Source: Spirochaetia bacterium
GTDB lineage: Bacteria; Spirochaetota; Spirochaetia; CADAEX01
Direction: 5' to 3'
Assembly (NCBI GenBank): GCA_045606105.1
Contig: JAZURI010000011.1
Location: forward strand, 91,240-155,239
Length of the DNA: 64,000 nucleotides
Under the pieces are notes generated by a model, which was not told the origin of the DNA, did not search any database, and saw only the letters and a program-made list of their open reading frames with translations. The first letter of the stretch is position 1; each line of letters begins with the position of its first letter. Both the position numbers and the translations under genes were made by a program. This document shows positions 2,463 to 52,113 of this stretch, in pieces.

Positions 2463-4985
2463 TCAGTCTGCACGAGGCCCGGCAACAAACTCGTATTCGT
2501 TTGCACTTGAATAGAAGATGTCATTGAGCGTATCGTACATACCCACCTTTCCGTCAGACAGCCTTCTGCAAGGATACAGGTCTCCGATCAGCGTATGGTC
2601 ATGGTGCAGCTGCAGGTAATACAGCTTTCCGTGAGCCGATTCCGGAGTTGAGTTGTCCCTGAATACAAGAAGTACGTCATCGTTGAACGATCCTACCGGT
2701 GACACATCAATGTTGAATGCATTGGACTCATTTTCGGCATTGATTACACCGAATCCGTGATAACGGCACAGATGCATCTTGCAAGGACCCTGGTCAAACC
2801 TTACCTCAAGACCCTGGTATGTTGTAGGTCCGTAATCAGCCTCAAAGATACGGAGAATACTGTTTCCGCGGAGTCTGAGGTCCGAGCTTCCGAATATGGT
2901 TCTGGAGTGATGTCCGCCGTACCAGAACTTGATATCCACTCCTGTCTTTTCGTTAGGAGTATACGGAATGATAAAGTACGCATCATTTCCGTCCACGTTC
3001 TCGATATATTCCAGCCTCTCGTACCAAAGGGCATAGATGGTTGTGTTGCTGTTGATCACTTCGGTATTGAAGTCAAACTTTTCTGTCTTGGCCGGGTTCT
3101 TGTACCAGCCGGCAAAGATATATCCTGATTTAACCGGGTCTGTCGGAACAGGAGCCGATTCACCTTCCAATACATTGATTGAAGAAGGATTAAGTGTACC
3201 ACCGTCGGTATCATAGGTAACTTTATAGACACTACTGCTGCTGGACCATTCGCCGTAAAGGGTCATATCCTGGGTTACAGGCTGAGTGAAATCCCATTTA
3301 TTATTCCAATCAAACAATGCACCAAGGGCAGATCCGTACCAGCCTCTGAAAGCCTTGCCTGCCTCCAGGCTGACCTTAGGAATCTCCAGATAACCTCCCG
3401 TAGGAACAATCTGTGTATCTACCGTTGTTGTAGAAAGTGACCATCCGCTGTCCCTGATTACAAATGAAACTGTACATGTTGTATCATTTCCGTCGTCAAC
3501 GCTGCCACCAAAGATACTTGTAGGAACAGCAATCCACTGCGCATAGTATGTGGTATTCTCTGTCAGTGCAGTATGTTCATGAACTCTGGTTCCGCCGTTT
3601 ACTTCAGTACCCCATCCGTTGAGTACGAAGGTAACCCACCTGAGGCCTGCGGCATTTACCGTTGCTTCAGGAAGCAGTCCGATATGGTCTCCCTTGTATC
3701 CGCTTACAGTTGCAGGTGTAACATTTGTAGTATATGTGTTACCGTTATAGGAAGGCCTGTTTCCGTCAAATGTTACTGTAATCCATTCCCTGTGGGCATA
3801 GAGATTCATGTCTTCGGTAAAAGGCTCCATGGAAGTGAATCTTGTACCGCCGCCTCCGTTACCGTCTTCAGGTGCTGTATACCAGTATCCGTCCGAAAGT
3901 TCTCCCAGAGGAGGAAGGTCTGTCTGATCGGAAACTCCGCTGTAGGTCCTGAAACGCTGAGGTGTAGGATTATTGAAATAATAGAGGTTTATTTCTATGG
4001 CATCAGCTATTTTCAGATAGCATACGGCCGGAGATACCGTATCTCCGTCCACGATACATTTTATTTCAAAGTTTCCGTATTCGTCCGCTTCATAGAGAAA
4101 GTTCCTGTTTGATCCGAACTGTACCAGAACTTCGTCCACATACCAGTCAAAATTTTCTCCCTGGCTTCCGCAGAGCAGACTGATTATTTCATCAAGGTCA
4201 TTCTCCATGACTGTGGTTTTGCCCTTGAGCAGGAGGTTCCCCGAAGTAAACTCACCGGAAACCACGGCCTGATGATCCTCAAGCACCTCTACGGTGATTA
4301 CCTCTCCGTAGTGATATCCCACATATTCATCCCCGAATGTGAATGCCAGAGTATAGAATCCCACTTCAAGATCGTCAAGTGTTCCTGTAAACCTGAGAAT
4401 TCCGTCGCTTCTGGTCATTGCAAAATCGGTGAAGAACTGTGTTTTTTCTCCCACAAGGGTATAGTTTACCGTAAGGTGTCCCCCCTGGCTTGAGACCTGA
4501 GGAATAGTAACATCCATACGGATGGAGCCGGTTCCCATAGAGAGTTCCAGATCCACATCCACAAAATTGATTCCCATATTGATGTAGGTCTCGCACTCAC
4601 CATACATCAGTATATGGTCACTGCTGTCAAAGGCTGCAACGGTAAAATGCCATAATCCCTGGGAAAGTCCCACGGCATCCCCTATTGTAAAAGGCTGCCA
4701 TTCGCGTACGGTACCGAAAGGAGTCAGCCCCGAGTCAAGCTCGAACAGAGGTTCTGCCTTATATTTGTAGGAAATTACCTCAGCACCCGGATCCGCACTC
4801 AGGCTGGCATTGATCTTGCGCATAGGTCCGCCGTCAGAACCGGGAGCAGAGAGCCCGAAAATGATTTCGGAAGTTTTAATATTGGAGGCAGAAGCATCCA
4901 GTGCCTTATCCACGCTGCCGTTGTCACAGGAAAAAAACATAGGAATGAGTAATAGAGATAATATTAAAAAAAGAAATCGTCTCAA
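2463..4985 (-). CDS. Large surface lipoprotein: N-terminal beta-sandwich region shared with neighbours, InlB-B/Listeria-Bacteroides repeats, C-terminal LamG/ConA-like domain
   Basis: TTG start after AGGAGG; lipobox MFFS-C20; repeats such as VTYDTDGG...P.K.GY.FAGWY...FDF..T.YA.W; C-terminal LYPCRRLSDGKVGMYD. Confidence 0.8.
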   Translation of the reverse strand: MRRFLFLILSLLLIPMFFSCDNGSVDKALDASASNIKTSEIIFGLSAPGSDGGPMRKINASLSADPGAEVISYKYKAEPLFELDSGLTPFGTVREWQPFTIGDAVGLSQGLWHFTVAAFDSSDHILMYGECETYINMGINFVDVDLELSMGTGSIRMDVTIPQVSSQGGHLTVNYTLVGEKTQFFTDFAMTRSDGILRFTGTLDDLEVGFYTLAFTFGDEYVGYHYGEVITVEVLEDHQAVVSGEFTSGNLLLKGKTTVMENDLDEIISLLCGSQGENFDWYVDEVLVQFGSNRNFLYEADEYGNFEIKCIVDGDTVSPAVCYLKIADAIEINLYYFNNPTPQRFRTYSGVSDQTDLPPLGELSDGYWYTAPEDGNGGGGTRFTSMEPFTEDMNLYAHREWITVTFDGNRPSYNGNTYTTNVTPATVSGYKGDHIGLLPEATVNAAGLRWVTFVLNGWGTEVNGGTRVHEHTALTENTTYYAQWIAVPTSIFGGSVDDGNDTTCTVSFVIRDSGWSLSTTTVDTQIVPTGGYLEIPKVSLEAGKAFRGWYGSALGALFDWNNKWDFTQPVTQDMTLYGEWSSSSSVYKVTYDTDGGTLNPSSINVLEGESAPVPTDPVKSGYIFAGWYKNPAKTEKFDFNTEVINSNTTIYALWYERLEYIENVDGNDAYFIIPYTPNEKTGVDIKFWYGGHHSRTIFGSSDLRLRGNSILRIFEADYGPTTYQGLEVRFDQGPCKMHLCRYHGFGVINAENESNAFNIDVSPVGSFNDDVLLVFRDNSTPESAHGKLYYLQLHHDHTLIGDLYPCRRLSDGKVGMYDTLNDIFYSSANEYEFVAGPRAD

Positions 4986-5000
4986 CTGTCTGCCTCCTTA

Positions 5001-5027
5001 AAAAAAACCTGTCCCGCAAGACGGGTT
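5001..5027 (-). terminator. Intrinsic terminator (imperfect stem) after the 349-aa lipoprotein gene
   Basis: Minus strand AACCCGTCTTGCGGGACAGGTT followed by a T-run; one stem mismatch. Confidence 0.6.
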
Positions 5028-5042
5028 ATACTTTTTAAAAGA

Positions 5043-6092
5043 TTAGTCTGTTACTGTAAAATCCATATTAATTGACATTGCGATGTTTCCGCTGGTTACG
5101 CCGCATGCGATGTTTGCAAACTGTGCTGCAGAAGGTGTCCAGCTGTAAGTTGCTTCATTGCCCGGCATAGGAGCTCCGTTGATGAACCACTGGTAAGTTG
5201 CACCGTCGGCAGGCACTGCTGTACAGGTGAATGTTACAGTCTGATTCTTGGCAATCTGTGTTACTGCCTCATCAGAATTATTTTTGGCTGCAAGTGTAAG
5301 AGTCAGCACTGCAAGACCGTTTACAGAAAGGGAAGGAGTCTGGAACAGACCGTAATCAAGGGTACCTGTAATGGCTGCTGTCTCTCCGCCGTCCACTGTT
5401 ACATAAAGAGGTACTGTTCCTACAGGGTTGTCGCCGTTCTTATATTCAAGATTTACCCAATACATGCCGGCTGCGAGGTTATCAATTGTCTCCTTATCAA
5501 AATCTGCCTTTTCGGCTGTGCTTGATCCGTTAGGCACTACAGTGATAGTTTCGATTGCATTGGCTGTGTCTTCCACGGAACCGTAGGAAATTACAAGCTT
5601 GTCTCCGGAAGCTACTACTCTTTTTGCATCCACATCCACTGTGATTGTACCTTTCATTGTATCGTCAAATGCAGGTGATACATCAAATACAACCGGTGTG
5701 CCTGAGGCATTTACATAAGCTGTTTCGGTTCCTGTATAGAGCACGGCACCTTTTGCTGACCTTACCTGAATATCGAATGTCCACTGTCCCTGCTGGAAAA
5801 GACCGATGGTTCCGGTGGTTCCTCCAAATTCAGTAACCTGAGTCCATGCATCTCTCTTTCCGTAGGCATTTTCGCTGCCGGCCCACTGAGGTGTTGCCTT
5901 GTAATATATAGAGCTTACTGAACCGCGTCCTCCTGTAACGGATACGGCATAGGATGGGCCGTAGGAAGATATGTCAAATGATACACTTACAAGAGACGGA
6001 CCTGATGCAAGATCGTCAGAGCCGCCGTTCTGACAGGAACATACGAATATCATAGCCAGACAAAGCATTAATATTGTAAATTTTCTTTTCAT
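5043..6092 (-). CDS. Surface lipoprotein, paralog of 6374..7417
   Basis: Lipobox IFVCS-C20; shared YKATP.W, FQQGQWTFD.QV, TFTCTA.PA...TYQW.ING motifs. Confidence 0.85.
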   Translation of the reverse strand: MKRKFTILMLCLAMIFVCSCQNGGSDDLASGPSLVSVSFDISSYGPSYAVSVTGGRGSVSSIYYKATPQWAGSENAYGKRDAWTQVTEFGGTTGTIGLFQQGQWTFDIQVRSAKGAVLYTGTETAYVNASGTPVVFDVSPAFDDTMKGTITVDVDAKRVVASGDKLVISYGSVEDTANAIETITVVPNGSSTAEKADFDKETIDNLAAGMYWVNLEYKNGDNPVGTVPLYVTVDGGETAAITGTLDYGLFQTPSLSVNGLAVLTLTLAAKNNSDEAVTQIAKNQTVTFTCTAVPADGATYQWFINGAPMPGNEATYSWTPSAAQFANIACGVTSGNIAMSINMDFTVTD

Positions 6093-6157
6093 GTCTGTTC
6101 TCCGTCAAAATTGGAAATACAAAAAAATGTTATTCCTAACAAAATAATAAAAGAAAA

Positions 6158-6230
6158 TCGGGCAAGGCGGACTCGAACCGCCGGTCTCAACGTCCCGAAC
6201 GTTGCGCGCTACCAACTGCGCTATTGCCCG
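6158..6230 (-). tRNA. tRNA-Pro (anticodon CGG), CCA not encoded
   Basis: CGGGCAATAGCGCAGTTGGTAGCGCGCAACGTTCGGGACGTTGAGACCGGCGGTTCGAGTCCGCCTTGCCCGA folds into a cloverleaf; anticodon loop TTCGGGA. Confidence 0.97.
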
Positions 6231-6329
6231 AAAGAGTTACGGACTCCCCGCCGTCCAGGATAAATGATACGCTGGCTCCGCCTACGGGAGTTATACCGTT
6301 CTTGTACATCTGCCGCCGTGACCGAAGAC

Positions 6330-6359
6330 AAAAAACCTGTCCCGCCGGGGACAGGTTTT
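6330..6359 (-). terminator. Strong intrinsic terminator after the 347-aa lipoprotein gene
   Basis: AAAACCTGTCCC-CGGC-GGGACAGGTTTTTT. Confidence 0.85.
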
Positions 6360-6373
6360 ACTATATCATATCA

Positions 6374-7417
6374 TTAAGGCAATTCTGTTACCTGATATGT
6401 AATTGACTTGCTGACAACAATGTTTCCGCGGGTTGCTGTACAAGTAATGCTTGCATTCTGATATGCAGTCGGAGACCATTCATATGATGGTACTGTTGTT
6501 GCACTGCCTACAGCATCTCCGTTTATATACCACTGGTATGTTGTTTCGCCGGCAGGAGTTGCAGTACAGGTGAAAGTAACCACTCCGGCGTCGACACTGC
6601 TCTCTATCTCGGAAAGGGTAAAGGATGATGAAATTCCGTTGATTGTAATGAGTGCTGTCTGGAATTCTCCTTCTACAAGGTTTCCGGAAATAGTTGCTGT
6701 CTGACCGGCATCAAGTGTAAAGTTGACGATTGCGCTACCTACTTCAGCTGTATTGTTCAGATATGTAAGCTTAACCCAGTAGTTGCCTGCTGCAAGGCCT
6801 TCCACATCATCAATCTCAAATGAAAGGCTTGGGCTGTCTGCTGCACATGTTTTTGTCTGATTTGTTTCTAGGTCAGCATCCTGTCCCACAAGTCCGTACT
6901 CCATAAGTACCTTGTTGAGATTCAAGGTCGGATTTATCTTGGCTGCTGTGATTGTATCAAATGCGATTGTACCTGTACCTACACCAGCTCCGCCGCGTGT
7001 TACAGTTACTTCTACAGGTGTATTTGCAGCATTGATGTATACTGTGGTTGCTGCTCCTGTATAAACAACGTTTGCACCACTTTTTACCTGAACATCGAAT
7101 GTCCACTGTCCCTGCTGGAAGTATCCGAGATCCTTTTCTGCTGCATAATCTTCAATTTCGACAAATCCAGCTGTCTTTCCGAATACATTTTCGTTTGTCC
7201 AATTAGGAGTTGCCTTGTACCAGTAAGTAAGTTCGCCTGAAACACTTCCGCCGCTTACGGAAATGGTTCTCTGAGGTCCGTCTGCAGGAAGTTCTACAGA
7301 AAGGTTTACTTTATATAAAGCGCCGCCTGCAATATCGTCGGAACCGGTTCCGTTCTGACATGAGCATACAAAAATCATTGCCATACAAAGCAAAAGTACG
7401 ATTAAATTTTTTTTCAT
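6374..7417 (-). CDS. Surface lipoprotein, first gene of the paralog cluster
   Basis: Lipobox IFVCS-C20; GGGAGA RBS; beta-rich; C-terminal Ig-like domain with Cys pair. Confidence 0.85.
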   Translation of the reverse strand: MKKNLIVLLLCMAMIFVCSCQNGTGSDDIAGGALYKVNLSVELPADGPQRTISVSGGSVSGELTYWYKATPNWTNENVFGKTAGFVEIEDYAAEKDLGYFQQGQWTFDVQVKSGANVVYTGAATTVYINAANTPVEVTVTRGGAGVGTGTIAFDTITAAKINPTLNLNKVLMEYGLVGQDADLETNQTKTCAADSPSLSFEIDDVEGLAAGNYWVKLTYLNNTAEVGSAIVNFTLDAGQTATISGNLVEGEFQTALITINGISSSFTLSEIESSVDAGVVTFTCTATPAGETTYQWYINGDAVGSATTVPSYEWSPTAYQNASITCTATRGNIVVSKSITYQVTELP

Positions 7418-7429
7418 AAAATTCTCCCT

Positions 7430-7501
7430 TTTTTTACGTAGATATTATCTGCGTAAAAAATATATATTGTAATATATATTCCTCTCATATTAAATTGTCA
7501 A
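7430..7501 (-). promoter_or_regulatory. Probable promoter of the lipoprotein cluster with palindromic operator/hairpin
   Basis: Minus-strand TTGACA (7501-7496), TA-rich -10 region, and inverted repeat TTTTTTACGTAGATA-T-TATCTGCGTAAAAAA at 7430-7460. Confidence 0.5.
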
Positions 7502-46314: not shown

Positions 46315-49300
46315 TTACTTAACCTCAACCATAACTGCATCCCCTTCGGTAGGCATTACCAGAAGCATTTTCCGGATCGGCATACCGGGATACAAGGCTG
46401 CCAGTCCCTGTGCGTAGAGGCTTACCTGACGGCTGTAGCGGTCAAGGGTCTCCCTGTCAAGCCGGCCGCCGGTATGGGTCTTGTAATCCAGGATAACAAA
46501 CTCCCTGCCGTCTCCCACCACCAGGTCCATGATTCCGTAGAGCATCCTGTCCTCGTGCCTGAATAAAATACCCGCCTCGGCCCTCATACCTGCAGCATTT
46601 CTTACCAGCTCCCGGTACTCCTTGTTCATAAGCCCCTTGCGGATAAAGTTCTCTGCCTTTTTCTTTATGTCGGCAGGCAGCTCCAGCATTTTGGAATCTA
46701 TGTTTTCCGGATCCACCGCATCGTACTTTATCTCAAGCAGCTTCTTCTCGAACCAGCTGTGAACCGCAGTACCTATGTCGTTGCTCCTGTTGTCCCGGTT
46801 CTCGCCGCCGGTATACTCTGCCTTGGCCTCCTCCTCGTCGGTCTCCCCATTGAGATACCTGGATACGGAGCCGTATTCCAGAAGGTCGGAAAAACCCTCT
46901 TCCCTGATAAAAGGCATAGACTCGGAACGGGAGGCTCCTTTTTCGGCTTCCGGGGTAGCGATACACTCAAAGTGGATATTTTCAATCTCTGCCGCTGCCG
47001 GTACCGAATCAAGGTTGCTCAGGATATTCTTGTACCAGTTGGCATCCGGAACCGCAGGCTTGTCCGCATCATAATTCTCTGTCCTGAGGGTTACGAAAAG
47101 ATTGTCCCTGGCCCTTGTCAGCGCCACGTAGAGAAGATTTGCATACTCCCTTTCGTCAAATTCGGTATTCTCGTATTTCATGCATACAGAGAAAGGAAAT
47201 TCGGAATCGCCGTCATTAAGCTCCCGCACCCTTCTGACACCGAAATCGGTAACAAGACCGTCTCCCTGACTGAGGTTGATGAAGCTCAGTTCCTCAGACT
47301 CCATATAATCCCTGCTTGTTACCTTGGCCAGGATAAGGTTATCGAATTCCAGCCCCTTGGAGCTGTGGACTGTCATGATTTTTACCGATTCGGCAACTGC
47401 AATGACACATTCCTTGGTATTTTCCTCTGTCATGCTGTCCAGGTGATTAAAAATACTTTCCGGGCAGTTATCAAACTTTTCCGCCACCTCTCCCAGATAT
47501 TCGGTAAAAACCGATATATAGGATGCGGCACCCTGAGTCCTGCCCATATGAAGGCTGTATTCCCGGGAGGCTATGATTTCCTGCAGCGTAAAGAGAACTC
47601 CCTTTCCCGGATCCCGTTCCCTGCGGTAAAGCTCTGCCAGAACAGGAAATGAAGCCAGTACGGATTCCGGAAGAATGCCGTAGATAACCTTAAGCAGAAG
47701 AATAAGCTCATAAATTTCCGGCAGGTTGAAGAAGTCCCTTTTCATGATGAAGGAATAAGGAATTCCCGCAGTTCTCAGCGCTTCCAGGATGTACGACACG
47801 TCGGTATAGGACCTGATAAGGATACCCCAGCTTCCGTACTTTTCCTTTCCGTTTTTCCGGATAAGGTTGGCAATATAGTCTCCCTCCTTGATTTTCAGGC
47901 GACGGATAAGATCCTTTCTCGGAGCATCCTCTGTCTTGTCATCCTTTGAAAAATAGATATTTGTAAAAAAGACCCTTTTGCCCGGATTCTTTTCTTTCCG
48001 TACCGGAATCATGCTTTCGTTGATGATGCGGTATGAACTATATTTGTTACAGCTTGAAAAAAAGCTGTTGCTGAAATTTACGATTTTTTCCTTGGATCTG
48101 TAGTTTTCGTTCAGGGATACCACCAGAGTTCCCTCTTTTTTCTTGAAATACTCGAAAATCTGGTTGTCGCATTGCTGGAAGCGGTAGATTGCCTGCTTCT
48201 CATCCCCTACTATGAACAGCGTGTTTTCCGGTGTGTGGATTCCGTCCAGAATCTTTTTCTGCAGCCAGTTGCTGTCCTGGAATTCGTCCACCATTATGTG
48301 CCTGATCTCGCCGCTGATCTGTTTACGGATCTCCTCATTCTCCAGAAGCTCTGTCATGTAGATCGGGAAATCGCTGAGCTCAATAACGCTTTTTTCTGTC
48401 TTGTAGGCCTCTATTTCCTTTTCCGCTTCTGTCATCAGATCGAAAATATCCAGACGGATGTTCTTTTCAAAATTCTCAGGCAGTGCACTGATATCGGGCT
48501 CCGGCTTCAGCATCCGGTATATCTTCTTGAATTCCGCCAGAAGGGATGATGCCCTCTGACTGCTTTTGTAGACCTTGGCAGTGCAGGTATCGTTGCCCAC
48601 CGCGGAAAAATCCCTTTTTTCAAGCCTCTCTATCTTTTTCAGCACCGCGTTGACTGAATTCTTGTTGGTCTCCTCTTCGATATATTCCCTGAATACCTGA
48701 ATAAGATTATCGCTGATTTCCCCCAGCCTTTCATTCATGTTTTCAAGAACTGTCAGGAGAATTTTCTTATGCTCATCAAACAGCCTGTCAAACAATACCC
48801 TGCTGCTCTCCGACAATGCAGTTCCGCTGAGCTTGATCCGGTTCATGAGGTTAAGGAACTCCTCTGTCAGCGTTTTCCTGCTGATATACCTGCTCCAGAG
48901 CATGAAGTTTTCCGATTTTTCACGGTAGCTGTCGATAAGCCGTTTCAGGATTTCTTCCTTTTTTTCATTGATGATATAGTCATCCGCCACCTTGGCCTCT
49001 ATGTCCCTGTCGGAATCCTTTCTCACCTTTTCAAAGCGGAGAAGCATGTTGCGGCAGAAGGAATGATTGGTGGAGATGCGGTTCTTGGAGAAAAAGCTCC
49101 GTTTGGCCTCCAGAAGCCTTTCCCGCTGCTCCTGTGTCAGGGTGTAGCTGCCCGATTCCACGGAATAGAAGGCATTCAGCTCTATGGTGTCGCAGATCTT
49201 GCGGAAAATTCTATTCTGCATCTCTCCGGTAGCCTTTTCGGTAAAGGTTATGCAGAGAATCTCCTCCAGGGTGCAGCCTCCGTTTACAATCAGGTTTACA

Positions 49301-52113
49301 TATCTCGAAGAAAGGAGCTCTGTCTTTCCGGCTCCCGCTCCCGCCACCACGGCAATGTCCCGTTTCAGGTCGGAAACCGCAATTCCCTTTTCACCGGTAA
49401 ACATTATCAGCTTCTTTTCGGGAATCCCCCTCTTTTCCCCTTTTGTCTCCGTATCTATCAGAGGATAACCGGTATATATTTTATCCCCCGGACACAGACA
49501 TATATCTTTCTGCTTACGTATGGTCTTAAGCTCAGGACACCCTTTTGCCAACGGACAATATTCGCAGTTATGATTTATTTTTGTACGGAATATTCCCCTG
49601 TCCGCCTCATCCAGCAGCTTATTCAGCTCCTCTGCCATACAGCCGTAATAATCCTCCCAGGCCTTTTCGCCGCAGCCGTCCACCTTCTTGTAGTCACCCA
49701 CATAGGAAACATAGGCCGCAGTTACCGGATGCTTTCCGAATTTCTCCCTGAGCACGGCACCGTAGACCGGAAGCTGTACCAGGCCGTAGTTGAGTATGTC
49801 TTCTTTGTAATCCGAAATACTGCCGGACTTGAAATCGAAAATCAGTATATCGCCGGCAGAGGAACGGCACACAAAATCGGCACGGGTATTCTTTATCCTT
49901 ACACCCGGCACCAGAGGCAGATCTATTCCCTCTATCTCAAGCTCCGGCATGAAGCTTTCGGGATCTGCATCCATTCCGGCAAGCTCTTCCATAAAACGGC
50001 ACAGGAAATACAGATAACGGGAAAAATCCTTGTCGGTAAGCTCCAGATCAGGATATTTTCTGCAGATTTCCTCAAAAATTTTCTTTACTCCAAGCTCATC
50101 AAAAGCTGAAAAAAGCATGAACTCCCCACTGTCAGGTTCATCAGGACTGCAGGTTCCTTTTATATAGCTGCAGATGTTGCGCCTCAGTAAATCCAGGTTT
50201 TTGTACTCAGGCTTGAACAGCTTTTTCTGCACCAGTACCTTTTCCATAAAATAATGGAAGGCGTTTCCCCGGTCAAAATGTTCCCGGTTCTGGACATGGG
50301 GCTTCGGCTGATGACTCTCGTAGGCCGCTCTGGCAGGACAGCTAATGAATTTTTCTATGGAAGTGGCGCTTCCCACCCTTTTTCTCACATCCCCTTTGTA
50401 TACCGGAGCAAAGTTGTCGTTCTTCACATCCTCTCCCGGAGTGTAACAATCGGCAGCAGGAAAGTTTTCGTAGGTTATGTCATCCACGTTGAACGGAAGT
50501 TCTGCCCTGAAATCGGGAACGGAACTTCCAAGCACCTTGATATCATATTCCTTGCCCGGAAAAAGAGCGTAGATATATTCCAGGTAATGGGTCGGAATGG
50601 TGGCTTCGCTGTAGCACGGTATAACGAAGAAGAGCCTGTCCGATGCCTTTCTGATATAAGAGGCAAAGATACTCCTGAGATGCTCCTCCTTGGTACAGCC
50701 GTAGACCAGCCTGTTGAATTCCTCGTGGGATTGGTCGCTGAGAAGAGGATTGGGAGCATTATCCTTCAGGAAGAAGCCCTCCTCCATGTCGACAAAATAG
50801 ATGATACGGCATTTCGGGATATATTCCTCCATCATGGCCAGGGTCACACCGCAGTTGTCATTTGTAAAAGCCGCCTTCTTTCTCGGCAGCAGGATTTCGC
50901 TAAGATAATCGATTCCGTCCTTAAGCTTCAGGCTCTCCCCGAAGACCTTCTCCACCGATTCCCTGTATTCGAAAACCCTTTTTTCCCCTTTTATTCCCAG
51001 TCTGTCGGAAATGTCGGAAACAGTTTTCATAAGCCCTGCCGGCGTGGTTTTCCTGTCTGTGACATCCTTGAGCACGGTCAGGAAGCTGATAAATGCCTTG
51101 GGAATATATCTTCCCCGCTCCCGAAGCTCCTCATCTGTCTTTTCCAGCAATGTAATGAAACTGCCGATATCTTTCGGAAAATCAAAATCAGGCTCGTAGA
51201 AAAATCTCTCTGCATCGTTGTTGTGGATACGGTTATAGTAATCCACCAGGTTCCTTATGTTCAAGTCCAGGACATTGCGGATAAGGGTAAGGATCTCCAG
51301 AGTGCTGTCCGGCTGATTGACACTGACCGATGAAACCACGGGAAATCCGAAGTTCACGAAGCAGGCGGTACCGTTCCGGTGGGATTCCTTGCTGCTGAAC
51401 ACCACGGCAAAATCGCTGAACTCATACCCATGCTTACTGATAAGCTCCATGATGTGGGCACGGATTTCGGTGTACTGGGCAAAAGATTTCTCGGCTTTAA
51501 GGAAACCCACCTTCCCGGCAGTGATACCTGCACCCTTTATTCCCAGAGGATCATCCTCCCCGGGCTGAAGCTCGCTGCTCATGTCGGCCTGAAGCAGCCT
51601 CATCATCTCCTGTTCCAGCTTGGTGTAGTACTGTCCCGGAATAAGCTTGTACATCTTGCCGGTTCTCTGCCCCTGCCTCAGGTTCCGTAACGCCATACGG
51701 TACACATCCGCACGGAAATAAAAGCCCTTTTTCAGGACTGTCCAGTATATTATCTTGCATATCTGCGGAGTAAGCCCCAGCTCCGAGACCTCATCGCAGA
51801 AGGTATATTCATCCAGAAACTTGCTGTGAAATGCCATCTGGTTAAGGAGGGCGAAAATTGCTTTCTTATAACCTTTGTTTCCGAACTTGAACCGGTCCGG
51901 CACCTCAGGAATGTTGTCCAGTATGTAGCCGAAATCGGCCTCCATTATTACCTTTCCCCGGGGTATCATGGCTATATCCCTGGCTATATCATAAAGGGTC
52001 AGCGCCTTGTCGGCAAAGGCTGCCGAGAAGCATCTCTCCTCCATCTCCTTTCTGACAGAAAGACGGATTTTTCTTTCATCCGTATTTTTATTGACAATGT
52101 ATATTGATTCCAT
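46315..52113 (-). CDS. AddB-AddA-like fusion: degenerate helicase region + PD-(D/E)XK nuclease with Fe-S Cys, UvrD/SF1A helicase, RecB-type nuclease
   Basis: SCPAR...RADFV..FDFKSG...QLPVY...CEYCPLAKGC; AGAGAGKT, TFTEKA, VDEFQD, VGDEKQAIYRF, ENYRS, MTVHSSKGLEF, YVALTRA; GIMDL..LDYKT...QVSLY. Confidence 0.85.
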   Translation of the reverse strand: MESIYIVNKNTDERKIRLSVRKEMEERCFSAAFADKALTLYDIARDIAMIPRGKVIMEADFGYILDNIPEVPDRFKFGNKGYKKAIFALLNQMAFHSKFLDEYTFCDEVSELGLTPQICKIIYWTVLKKGFYFRADVYRMALRNLRQGQRTGKMYKLIPGQYYTKLEQEMMRLLQADMSSELQPGEDDPLGIKGAGITAGKVGFLKAEKSFAQYTEIRAHIMELISKHGYEFSDFAVVFSSKESHRNGTACFVNFGFPVVSSVSVNQPDSTLEILTLIRNVLDLNIRNLVDYYNRIHNNDAERFFYEPDFDFPKDIGSFITLLEKTDEELRERGRYIPKAFISFLTVLKDVTDRKTTPAGLMKTVSDISDRLGIKGEKRVFEYRESVEKVFGESLKLKDGIDYLSEILLPRKKAAFTNDNCGVTLAMMEEYIPKCRIIYFVDMEEGFFLKDNAPNPLLSDQSHEEFNRLVYGCTKEEHLRSIFASYIRKASDRLFFVIPCYSEATIPTHYLEYIYALFPGKEYDIKVLGSSVPDFRAELPFNVDDITYENFPAADCYTPGEDVKNDNFAPVYKGDVRKRVGSATSIEKFISCPARAAYESHQPKPHVQNREHFDRGNAFHYFMEKVLVQKKLFKPEYKNLDLLRRNICSYIKGTCSPDEPDSGEFMLFSAFDELGVKKIFEEICRKYPDLELTDKDFSRYLYFLCRFMEELAGMDADPESFMPELEIEGIDLPLVPGVRIKNTRADFVCRSSAGDILIFDFKSGSISDYKEDILNYGLVQLPVYGAVLREKFGKHPVTAAYVSYVGDYKKVDGCGEKAWEDYYGCMAEELNKLLDEADRGIFRTKINHNCEYCPLAKGCPELKTIRKQKDICLCPGDKIYTGYPLIDTETKGEKRGIPEKKLIMFTGEKGIAVSDLKRDIAVVAGAGAGKTELLSSRYVNLIVNGGCTLEEILCITFTEKATGEMQNRIFRKICDTIELNAFYSVESGSYTLTQEQRERLLEAKRSFFSKNRISTNHSFCRNMLLRFEKVRKDSDRDIEAKVADDYIINEKKEEILKRLIDSYREKSENFMLWSRYISRKTLTEEFLNLMNRIKLSGTALSESSRVLFDRLFDEHKKILLTVLENMNERLGEISDNLIQVFREYIEEETNKNSVNAVLKKIERLEKRDFSAVGNDTCTAKVYKSSQRASSLLAEFKKIYRMLKPEPDISALPENFEKNIRLDIFDLMTEAEKEIEAYKTEKSVIELSDFPIYMTELLENEEIRKQISGEIRHIMVDEFQDSNWLQKKILDGIHTPENTLFIVGDEKQAIYRFQQCDNQIFEYFKKKEGTLVVSLNENYRSKEKIVNFSNSFFSSCNKYSSYRIINESMIPVRKEKNPGKRVFFTNIYFSKDDKTEDAPRKDLIRRLKIKEGDYIANLIRKNGKEKYGSWGILIRSYTDVSYILEALRTAGIPYSFIMKRDFFNLPEIYELILLLKVIYGILPESVLASFPVLAELYRRERDPGKGVLFTLQEIIASREYSLHMGRTQGAASYISVFTEYLGEVAEKFDNCPESIFNHLDSMTEENTKECVIAVAESVKIMTVHSSKGLEFDNLILAKVTSRDYMESEELSFINLSQGDGLVTDFGVRRVRELNDGDSEFPFSVCMKYENTEFDEREYANLLYVALTRARDNLFVTLRTENYDADKPAVPDANWYKNILSNLDSVPAAAEIENIHFECIATPEAEKGASRSESMPFIREEGFSDLLEYGSVSRYLNGETDEEEAKAEYTGGENRDNRSNDIGTAVHSWFEKKLLEIKYDAVDPENIDSKMLELPADIKKKAENFIRKGLMNKEYRELVRNAAGMRAEAGILFRHEDRMLYGIMDLVVGDGREFVILDYKTHTGGRLDRETLDRYSRQVSLYAQGLAALYPGMPIRKMLLVMPTEGDAVMVEVK

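Follow-up and report, generated by a model that had tools for sequence, protein, structure and literature searches.

Background

Type V pili are described, in PMC13655056, as unique to the class Bacteroidia. The same paper places the cleavage sites of FimA and Mfa1 at Arg46 and Arg49, respectively, within a loop that follows the anchor strand, and states that C-terminal donor strands are required in the stalk and anchor pilins. The present work compares with this system a locus of an uncultured Spirochaetia bacterium (assembly GCA_045606105.1), contained in a stretch of 64,000 nucleotides (contig JAZURI010000011.1, positions 91,240 to 155,239; hereafter the window, to which coordinates without a locus name refer). 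Three paralogous genes of this stretch, g1, g2 and g3, had been proposed in a first-pass annotation to encode the major, anchor and tip subunits of a type V-like pilus. The analysis makes it probable, though by no means certain, that they encode genus-restricted, modular, lipid-anchored surface proteins which function independently, as monomeric adhesins or coat proteins. No literature on a type V pilus in Spirochaetes was found, the matches listed for type V pili together with Treponema dealing, by title and abstract, with P. gingivalis pili or with unrelated subjects, and the host phylum, Spirochaetota, itself sets the locus apart from the pilins of Bacteroidia. The genes are:

g1, 6374..7417, minus strand: 347-amino acid (aa) lipoprotein (open reading frame (ORF) list, structural model; family hidden Markov model (HMM), E 1e-75)
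g2, 5043..6092, minus strand: 349-aa paralog of g1 with the same architecture (family HMM, E 9e-66)
g3, 2463..4985, minus strand: 840-aa lipoprotein with a TTG start (family HMM, E 2e-44)

Other described proteins share parts of this architecture. The Bacteroides proteins BT_1938 (DUF4876, 4q1z), BACUNI_03093 (DUF3823, 4eiu) and BT_0210 (4ecn) are presumably lipid-anchored surface proteins with a sandwich as stalk. The N-terminal sandwiches of the first two match, at Z 7.9 and 6.7, the first domain of the region common to g1, g2 and g3 (the N-module, ~240 residues, which models as two beta-sandwich domains, D1 and D2), while BT_0210, which bears leucine-rich repeats as long members of the family do, is the best Foldseek match. 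However, there is no sequence similarity to any of them, 4ecn falls outside the 50 best rows of the VIA structure search, and the second stalk domain and a conserved Lys/Arg are peculiar to the spirochaete family. The C-terminal modules of g3 and its long relatives belong to the families known from the BspA, DUF285 and InlB B-repeat surface proteins that oral treponemes, Listeria and mycoplasmas carry, from which the family differs in its new N-terminal module and in that g1 and g2 lack such repeats. Gram-positive sortase pilins (GBS52 3phs, Spy0128 3gle, BcpA 3kpt) also contain two tandem sandwiches, matching at Z 6.5-6.9, but the proteins described here are diderm lipoproteins with neither an LPXTG motif nor a sortase context.

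Architecture of the three proteins

The description of three co-oriented, paralogous lipoproteins was correct, each translation carrying a lipobox Cys at position 20; g1 shares 40% identity with g2 (E 4e-72) and, across 284 columns, 22% with g3 (E 7e-6). The motifs quoted for them are likewise all present in the translations: G47-P48-Q49-R50 in g1, where R50 comes after the first strand; GPSY48 in place of GPQR in g2, with GGR56 further on; GPMR56-K57 in g3; and, common to all three, the segments Y.YKA.P, G.xQGxWxF and C..W..C. In g1, Cys20 is followed by a Gly/Ser/Asp tether (residues 21-33), the two-sandwich N-module (~34-260) and a C-terminal Ig-like domain (~264-345). A PDB sequence search with g1 gave no significant match.

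In g3, the N-module (with R56-K57) and an Ig-like segment lead into Flg_new (InlB B-type) repeats, reaching to about residue 655, and into a C-terminal domain of 186 aa. Both InlB-B repeats and a lectin-like domain had been claimed for this end of the protein. The repeats are certain (PF09479, E 1.4e-23, 83.2 bits against a gathering cut-off of 27, in 2 stretches), whereas the lectin-like domain was reduced to a weak lead from a language-model atlas, in which the nearest named cluster was ConA-like/Laminin_G_3 (0.95, 115 shared features). The best neighbours there were unnamed clusters, mostly of tailed-phage proteins (0.98, 191 features), and the last 186 aa (residues 655-840, window 2466-3023) gave no Pfam match and no significant PDB sequence match. 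This tail may be a receptor-binding domain that phages also possess.

Family and distribution

Neither Pfam nor NCBIfam contains a family that covers the first ~260 residues, which include the N-module. The ESM atlas placed the N-module near unnamed clusters at 0.91 and, as a lead only, near DUF4458 at 0.84; DUF3869 (E 0.0023, in 1 of 92 members) and DUF4493 (E 0.0042) were set aside, both matches being under their cut-offs. Relatives were nevertheless numerous: a word-indexed search returned 19 close ones, and an exhaustive HMMER search 161 cluster representatives at E <=0.001, with 74 at <=1e-10. Many of the latter search's relatives are proteins of 700-1200 aa, in which only residues 1-260 of g1 match, at their own N-terminus. 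Alignment A2 comprises 92 members, and all the conservation counts out of 92 given here rest on it. The lipobox Cys is present in 91 of them. The 91 relatives vary in length (50 of up to 400 aa, 19 of 401-600 aa and 22 above 600 aa), and the C-terminal modules found among the 92 include DUF285 (19), Ig_2/Ig_3 (17), Flg_new_2 (14) and LRR_5, of BspA type (11).

When the trimmed N-module HMM was run against the 5938 six-frame ORFs of the genome (1.46 Mb, 99% complete), g1, g2 and g3 were the only matches. Forty other genomes were sampled: 7 of the 8 congeneric ones had the family, none (0 of 11) of those belonging to the same taxonomic family but to another genus did, and the 21 genomes of other families yielded one weak match, to the Ig domain only. 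Across this sample of 41 genomes, the module is thus confined to a single, uncultured genus of Spirochaetia. One member of this genus (G001, 96% complete) has no family member at E <=1e-5, and therefore the family is dispensable within the genus. A search for related loci with alignment A1 returned a single locus, from the sister species.

The genes of congeners always stand in tandem, co-oriented clusters, the content of which varies: 4 short; short-long-short; short-long-long; 4 long; and 4 short plus 1 long. Two congener clusters lie between comEC and ksgA, the neighbourhood in which the present locus is also found. In two ORFs (L032 950-2911, plus strand; L033 1835-3766, minus strand) the N-module, moreover, follows LRR_5 and Flg_new domains on their C-terminal side, and it is present twice in a single protein (P0025), and it can therefore be considered a portable domain pair. 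At four congener loci the short-long-long cluster is preceded by a co-oriented gene for a membrane-anchored, coiled-coil-like protein of 363-400 aa, with no Pfam family and a weak PagL-like tail (E 0.0058):

L030 2564-3763, plus strand: coiled-coil-like protein gene
L028 8740-9828: coiled-coil-like protein gene
L029 7291-8379: coiled-coil-like protein gene
L023 783-1886: coiled-coil-like protein gene

The conserved basic residue

The pilus proposal had called for a basic residue conserved behind the first strand, and this was found. The column of Arg50 is occupied by Lys in 58 and Arg in 25 of the 92 members (83 in all), with Tyr in 4, all of g2 type, Asn in 3 and Ser in 2. In fact, it is the sole charged column among the 35 that are conserved in at least 80 of the 92 sequences, the remaining 34 being hydrophobic, aromatic, Gly, Pro, Ala or Cys. 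The residue stands a median of 30 positions after the Cys (range 21-37), and in the model of the N-module it falls within residues 47-54, predicted as a loop (predicted local distance difference test score, pLDDT, <50), behind a first strand (g1 34-42) modelled at pLDDT ~82. A lipoprotein precursor with a tether, a first strand and a loop carrying a basic residue some 30 positions after the Cys is also the layout of the type V pilins FimA, Mfa1 and Mfa2 (PDB 6jzk, 5nf3, 5nfi), and the position may be compared with Arg46 and Arg49, given for FimA and Mfa1 in PMC13655056. The parallel with the type V cleavage sites is real and unexplained.

These observations speak for the type V mechanism, in which removal of the first strand would open a groove for the next subunit to insert a strand of its own. 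Nevertheless, the strand to be removed is among the best-conserved elements of the family (the V37 column is hydrophobic in 91 of the 92), and we regard assembly in this way as very improbable.

The same residue could serve a simpler purpose, namely that a host or bacterial trypsin-like protease cuts at the Lys/Arg and the ectodomain is released or matured without polymerisation. Trypsin-like proteases are abundant in the animal gut, which is the habitat given in the run record of an RNA-library study (see Genomic context), and this explanation would account for the conserved Lys/Arg in a predicted loop as well as for the fact that no dedicated assembly features were found. However, the motif that follows the Lys/Arg, x-[IVL]-S-V, with a hydrophobic residue at +2 in 84 of the 92, resembles a buried strand more than an unconstrained linker, and after the putative cut the first strand would remain docked. 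Shedding as the main explanation of the family is thus possible but rather unlikely. As regards the residue itself, we infer that it is a functional site, its role most likely being processing or shedding by a trypsin-like protease, or a membrane-proximal contact.

Predicted fold and structural matches

The full-length model of g1 reached pLDDT 72.5, and its fold searches were dominated by the C-terminal Ig domain (264-345; pLDDT 84-95), with Z ~10 to Ig/FN3 folds. Since this domain swamped the searches, the N-module was modelled alone (pLDDT 83.4). Its top Foldseek match was the leucine-rich repeat protein 4ecn (BT_0210; E 9.5e-7), and further matches comprised the FimA prepilin 6jzk, Gram-positive pilins and the Bacteroides 'putative cell adhesion' entries 3up6, 4h40, 3gf8, 5cag, 3pay and 3ufi, which bear no pilin title but which we take to be type V pilins. 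TM-scores were 0.2-0.4, and type V pilins held 7 of the top 36 ranks.

The VIA search was made against representative structures and gave 50 best rows, in which a Z below 8 may mean a common arrangement only; no chain was found at Z 8. Type V pilins accounted for 10 of the 50 rows (Z 6.2-7.5), and all of these except 3gf8 and 5nf3 were co-linear with the N-module over both domains from the first strand, at a root-mean-square deviation (rmsd) of 7.6-10 Å (Mfa2 5nfi, Z 6.8 over 182 residues, rmsd 8.1; FimA 6jzk, Z 6.2 over 185 residues). The likeness to FimA, Mfa1 and Mfa2 that had been anticipated was therefore obtained as far as two co-linear sandwiches are concerned, but the scores lie in a grey zone, level with those of other proteins, unrelated folds among them: domain 1 of BT_1938 (7.9, the best match of D1), CBM20 (7.0-7.7), PucM and transthyretin-like folds (7.5-7.6), a TIE protein (7.6) and GBS52 (6.9), the best matches of D2 being transthyretin-like (Z 7.6). 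The modelled fold is compatible with that of a type V pilin and not specific to it.

Among these matches, the resemblance of D1 to the starch-binding CBM20 domains gives some ground for a periplasmic or inner-leaflet location, in which the lipoproteins would have a structural or substrate-binding role and no part in adhesion; many lipoproteins of treponeme-type spirochaetes are indeed kept in the periplasm. This is very unlikely in view of the C-terminal modules, since BspA-type leucine-rich repeats, DUF285, InlB B-repeats and Ig domains are typical of surface adhesins, and also because no transporter or enzyme genes belong to the clusters, either at this locus or at the congener loci inspected.

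Locus organization and the proposed pilus triad

In its complete form, the pilus proposal assigned the stalk to g1, with cleavage behind Arg50, the anchor to g2, which would stay uncleaved and bound to its lipid, and the adhesive tip to g3. The gene order (short, short, long) agrees with it, as does the existence of tandem loci in which short paralogs stand beside others with a C-terminal extension, which type V pilins also show. The elements between the genes do not:

6332..6359, minus strand: terminator-like hairpin 3' of g1, with a 12-bp stem followed by a T run
6157..6231, minus strand: tRNA-Pro(CGG) gene (ARAGORN), between g1 and g2, after the g1 terminator
5013..5025, minus strand: short terminator-like hairpin 3' of g2, with 3' half and T run as in the g1 terminator

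Because the terminator and the tRNA-Pro gene separate g1 from g2, the three genes do not form a single operon; each has a terminator-like hairpin of its own, and the tRNA gene is kept at the same site in the sister species (L031 5637-5711; L021 7292-7366). As the 3' half and the T run are common to both hairpins, the duplication that generated g1 and g2 probably brought the terminator along.

The assignment of g2 as an anchor lacking the Arg did not survive comparison with its orthologs, 3 of 8 of which, the sister species included, read GPDR, while the congener paralogs have Lys/Arg with one exception; no consistent, uncleavable anchor class therefore exists. The C-terminal end of both g1 and g2 is formed by a complete Ig domain (pLDDT 84-95), which stands in place of the free C-terminal donor strand of the type V pilins, so that no such strand is available in either protein. 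Against a pilus stand also the differing content of the clusters among genomes and the internal occurrence of the module in other proteins. A search of the genome for the pilin families PF06321, PF08842 and PF13149, in which the Bacteroides control gave its signal, found none of them, and they were not among the 25 listed of the 33 Pfam families to which the 92 relatives have matches. Peptidase_C11 (clostripain-type) was not found in the genome either, in a search whose control gave its signal and which did not survey proteases at large; the search for Peptidase_C25 had no control that gave a signal. For a complex of three copies of g1 51-347 (alignment A3), predicted without control runs, the scores were 0.18 and 0.00, the mark being 0.42; this result counts neither for nor against assembly.

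The decisive features of a major-anchor-tip triad are thus missing or contradicted, and there is very little likelihood that the three genes encode one. A looser version would be a spirochaetal counterpart of the type V system, with lipoprotein precursors of unrelated sequence, cut at the Lys/Arg behind an anchor strand and assembling as surface fibres; in this case, the donor would be the conserved hydrophobic strand after domain 2 (g1 254-260) or some other element. We give it only a slight chance of being true.

A probable reading: independent lipid-anchored adhesins

The probable alternative, that of independent, lipid-anchored adhesins or coat proteins, would work as follows. The proteins would be exported by their lipoprotein signal and acylated on Cys20, after which a flexible Gly/Ser/Asp tether of ~13 residues would keep them off the membrane. 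The two beta-sandwich domains of the N-module would form a rigid stalk, with variable binding modules presented at its far end: for g1 and g2, a single Ig-like domain each; for g3, an Ig domain, InlB-type B-repeats and an unassigned, possibly lectin-like or phage-receptor-binding-like domain; and for relatives, leucine-rich repeats of DUF285/BspA type. The tandem arrays would have arisen by duplication and domain shuffling. The genes, their paralogy, lipoboxes, domain architecture, distribution and conserved Lys/Arg are observations, on which surface exposure, adhesion, a monomeric state and a role for the basic residue are proposed.

Some points weigh against this account of the family. The only conserved charged residue is placed where type V pilins are cleaved, which a purely passive stalk leaves unexplained. 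Furthermore, all 6 genomes with long members also have at least one short member, as a stalk-plus-tip system would likewise predict.

Genomic context

Upstream of g1, a perfect TTGACA box is found at 7501-7496 on the minus strand, and the region separating g1 from its divergent neighbour contains one further element:

7430..7460, no strand assigned: 31-nt near-perfect palindrome in the htrA/g1 divergent region, between the TTGACA -35 box and the ribosome-binding site of g1

From its sequence and position, this palindrome could be an operator or a 5'-UTR (untranslated region) hairpin. This neighbour encodes an HtrA of the usual kind (Trypsin_2 plus PDZ, S1C type), and uvrB comes after it. Compared with the sister species, g1 is 81%, g2 89% and g3 96% identical, while the flanking genes span 77-98%; the possibility that g1 is hypervariable was rejected, its 81% falling within that span. 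Contigs from the RNA libraries of one study (X1 and X2), which derive from a related strain, extend over g3, g2 and the initial ~210 bases of g1 at >=90%, a coverage which neither ranks expression nor proves transcription and in which the uncovered body of g1 is uninformative. Elsewhere in the window, an ORF of 1932 aa occupies 46315-52113 on the minus strand.

Implications

The N-module is a newly defined and hitherto unannotated module, restricted to one genus of an uncultured gut spirochaete lineage with genomes of 1.2-1.8 Mb, and it is on this module that the lineage builds its adhesin-like lipoproteins. Since the three genes constitute the whole family in this genome, they offer a compact target for the study of attachment to host or glycans, and the single conserved basic residue, sited as in type V pilins, provides a sharp experimental handle. 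Should maturation at this Lys/Arg be shown, type V assembly would need a new taxonomic boundary; and if the fibre reading were true as well, the locus would represent the first protease-triggered strand-exchange fibre outside Bacteroidia.

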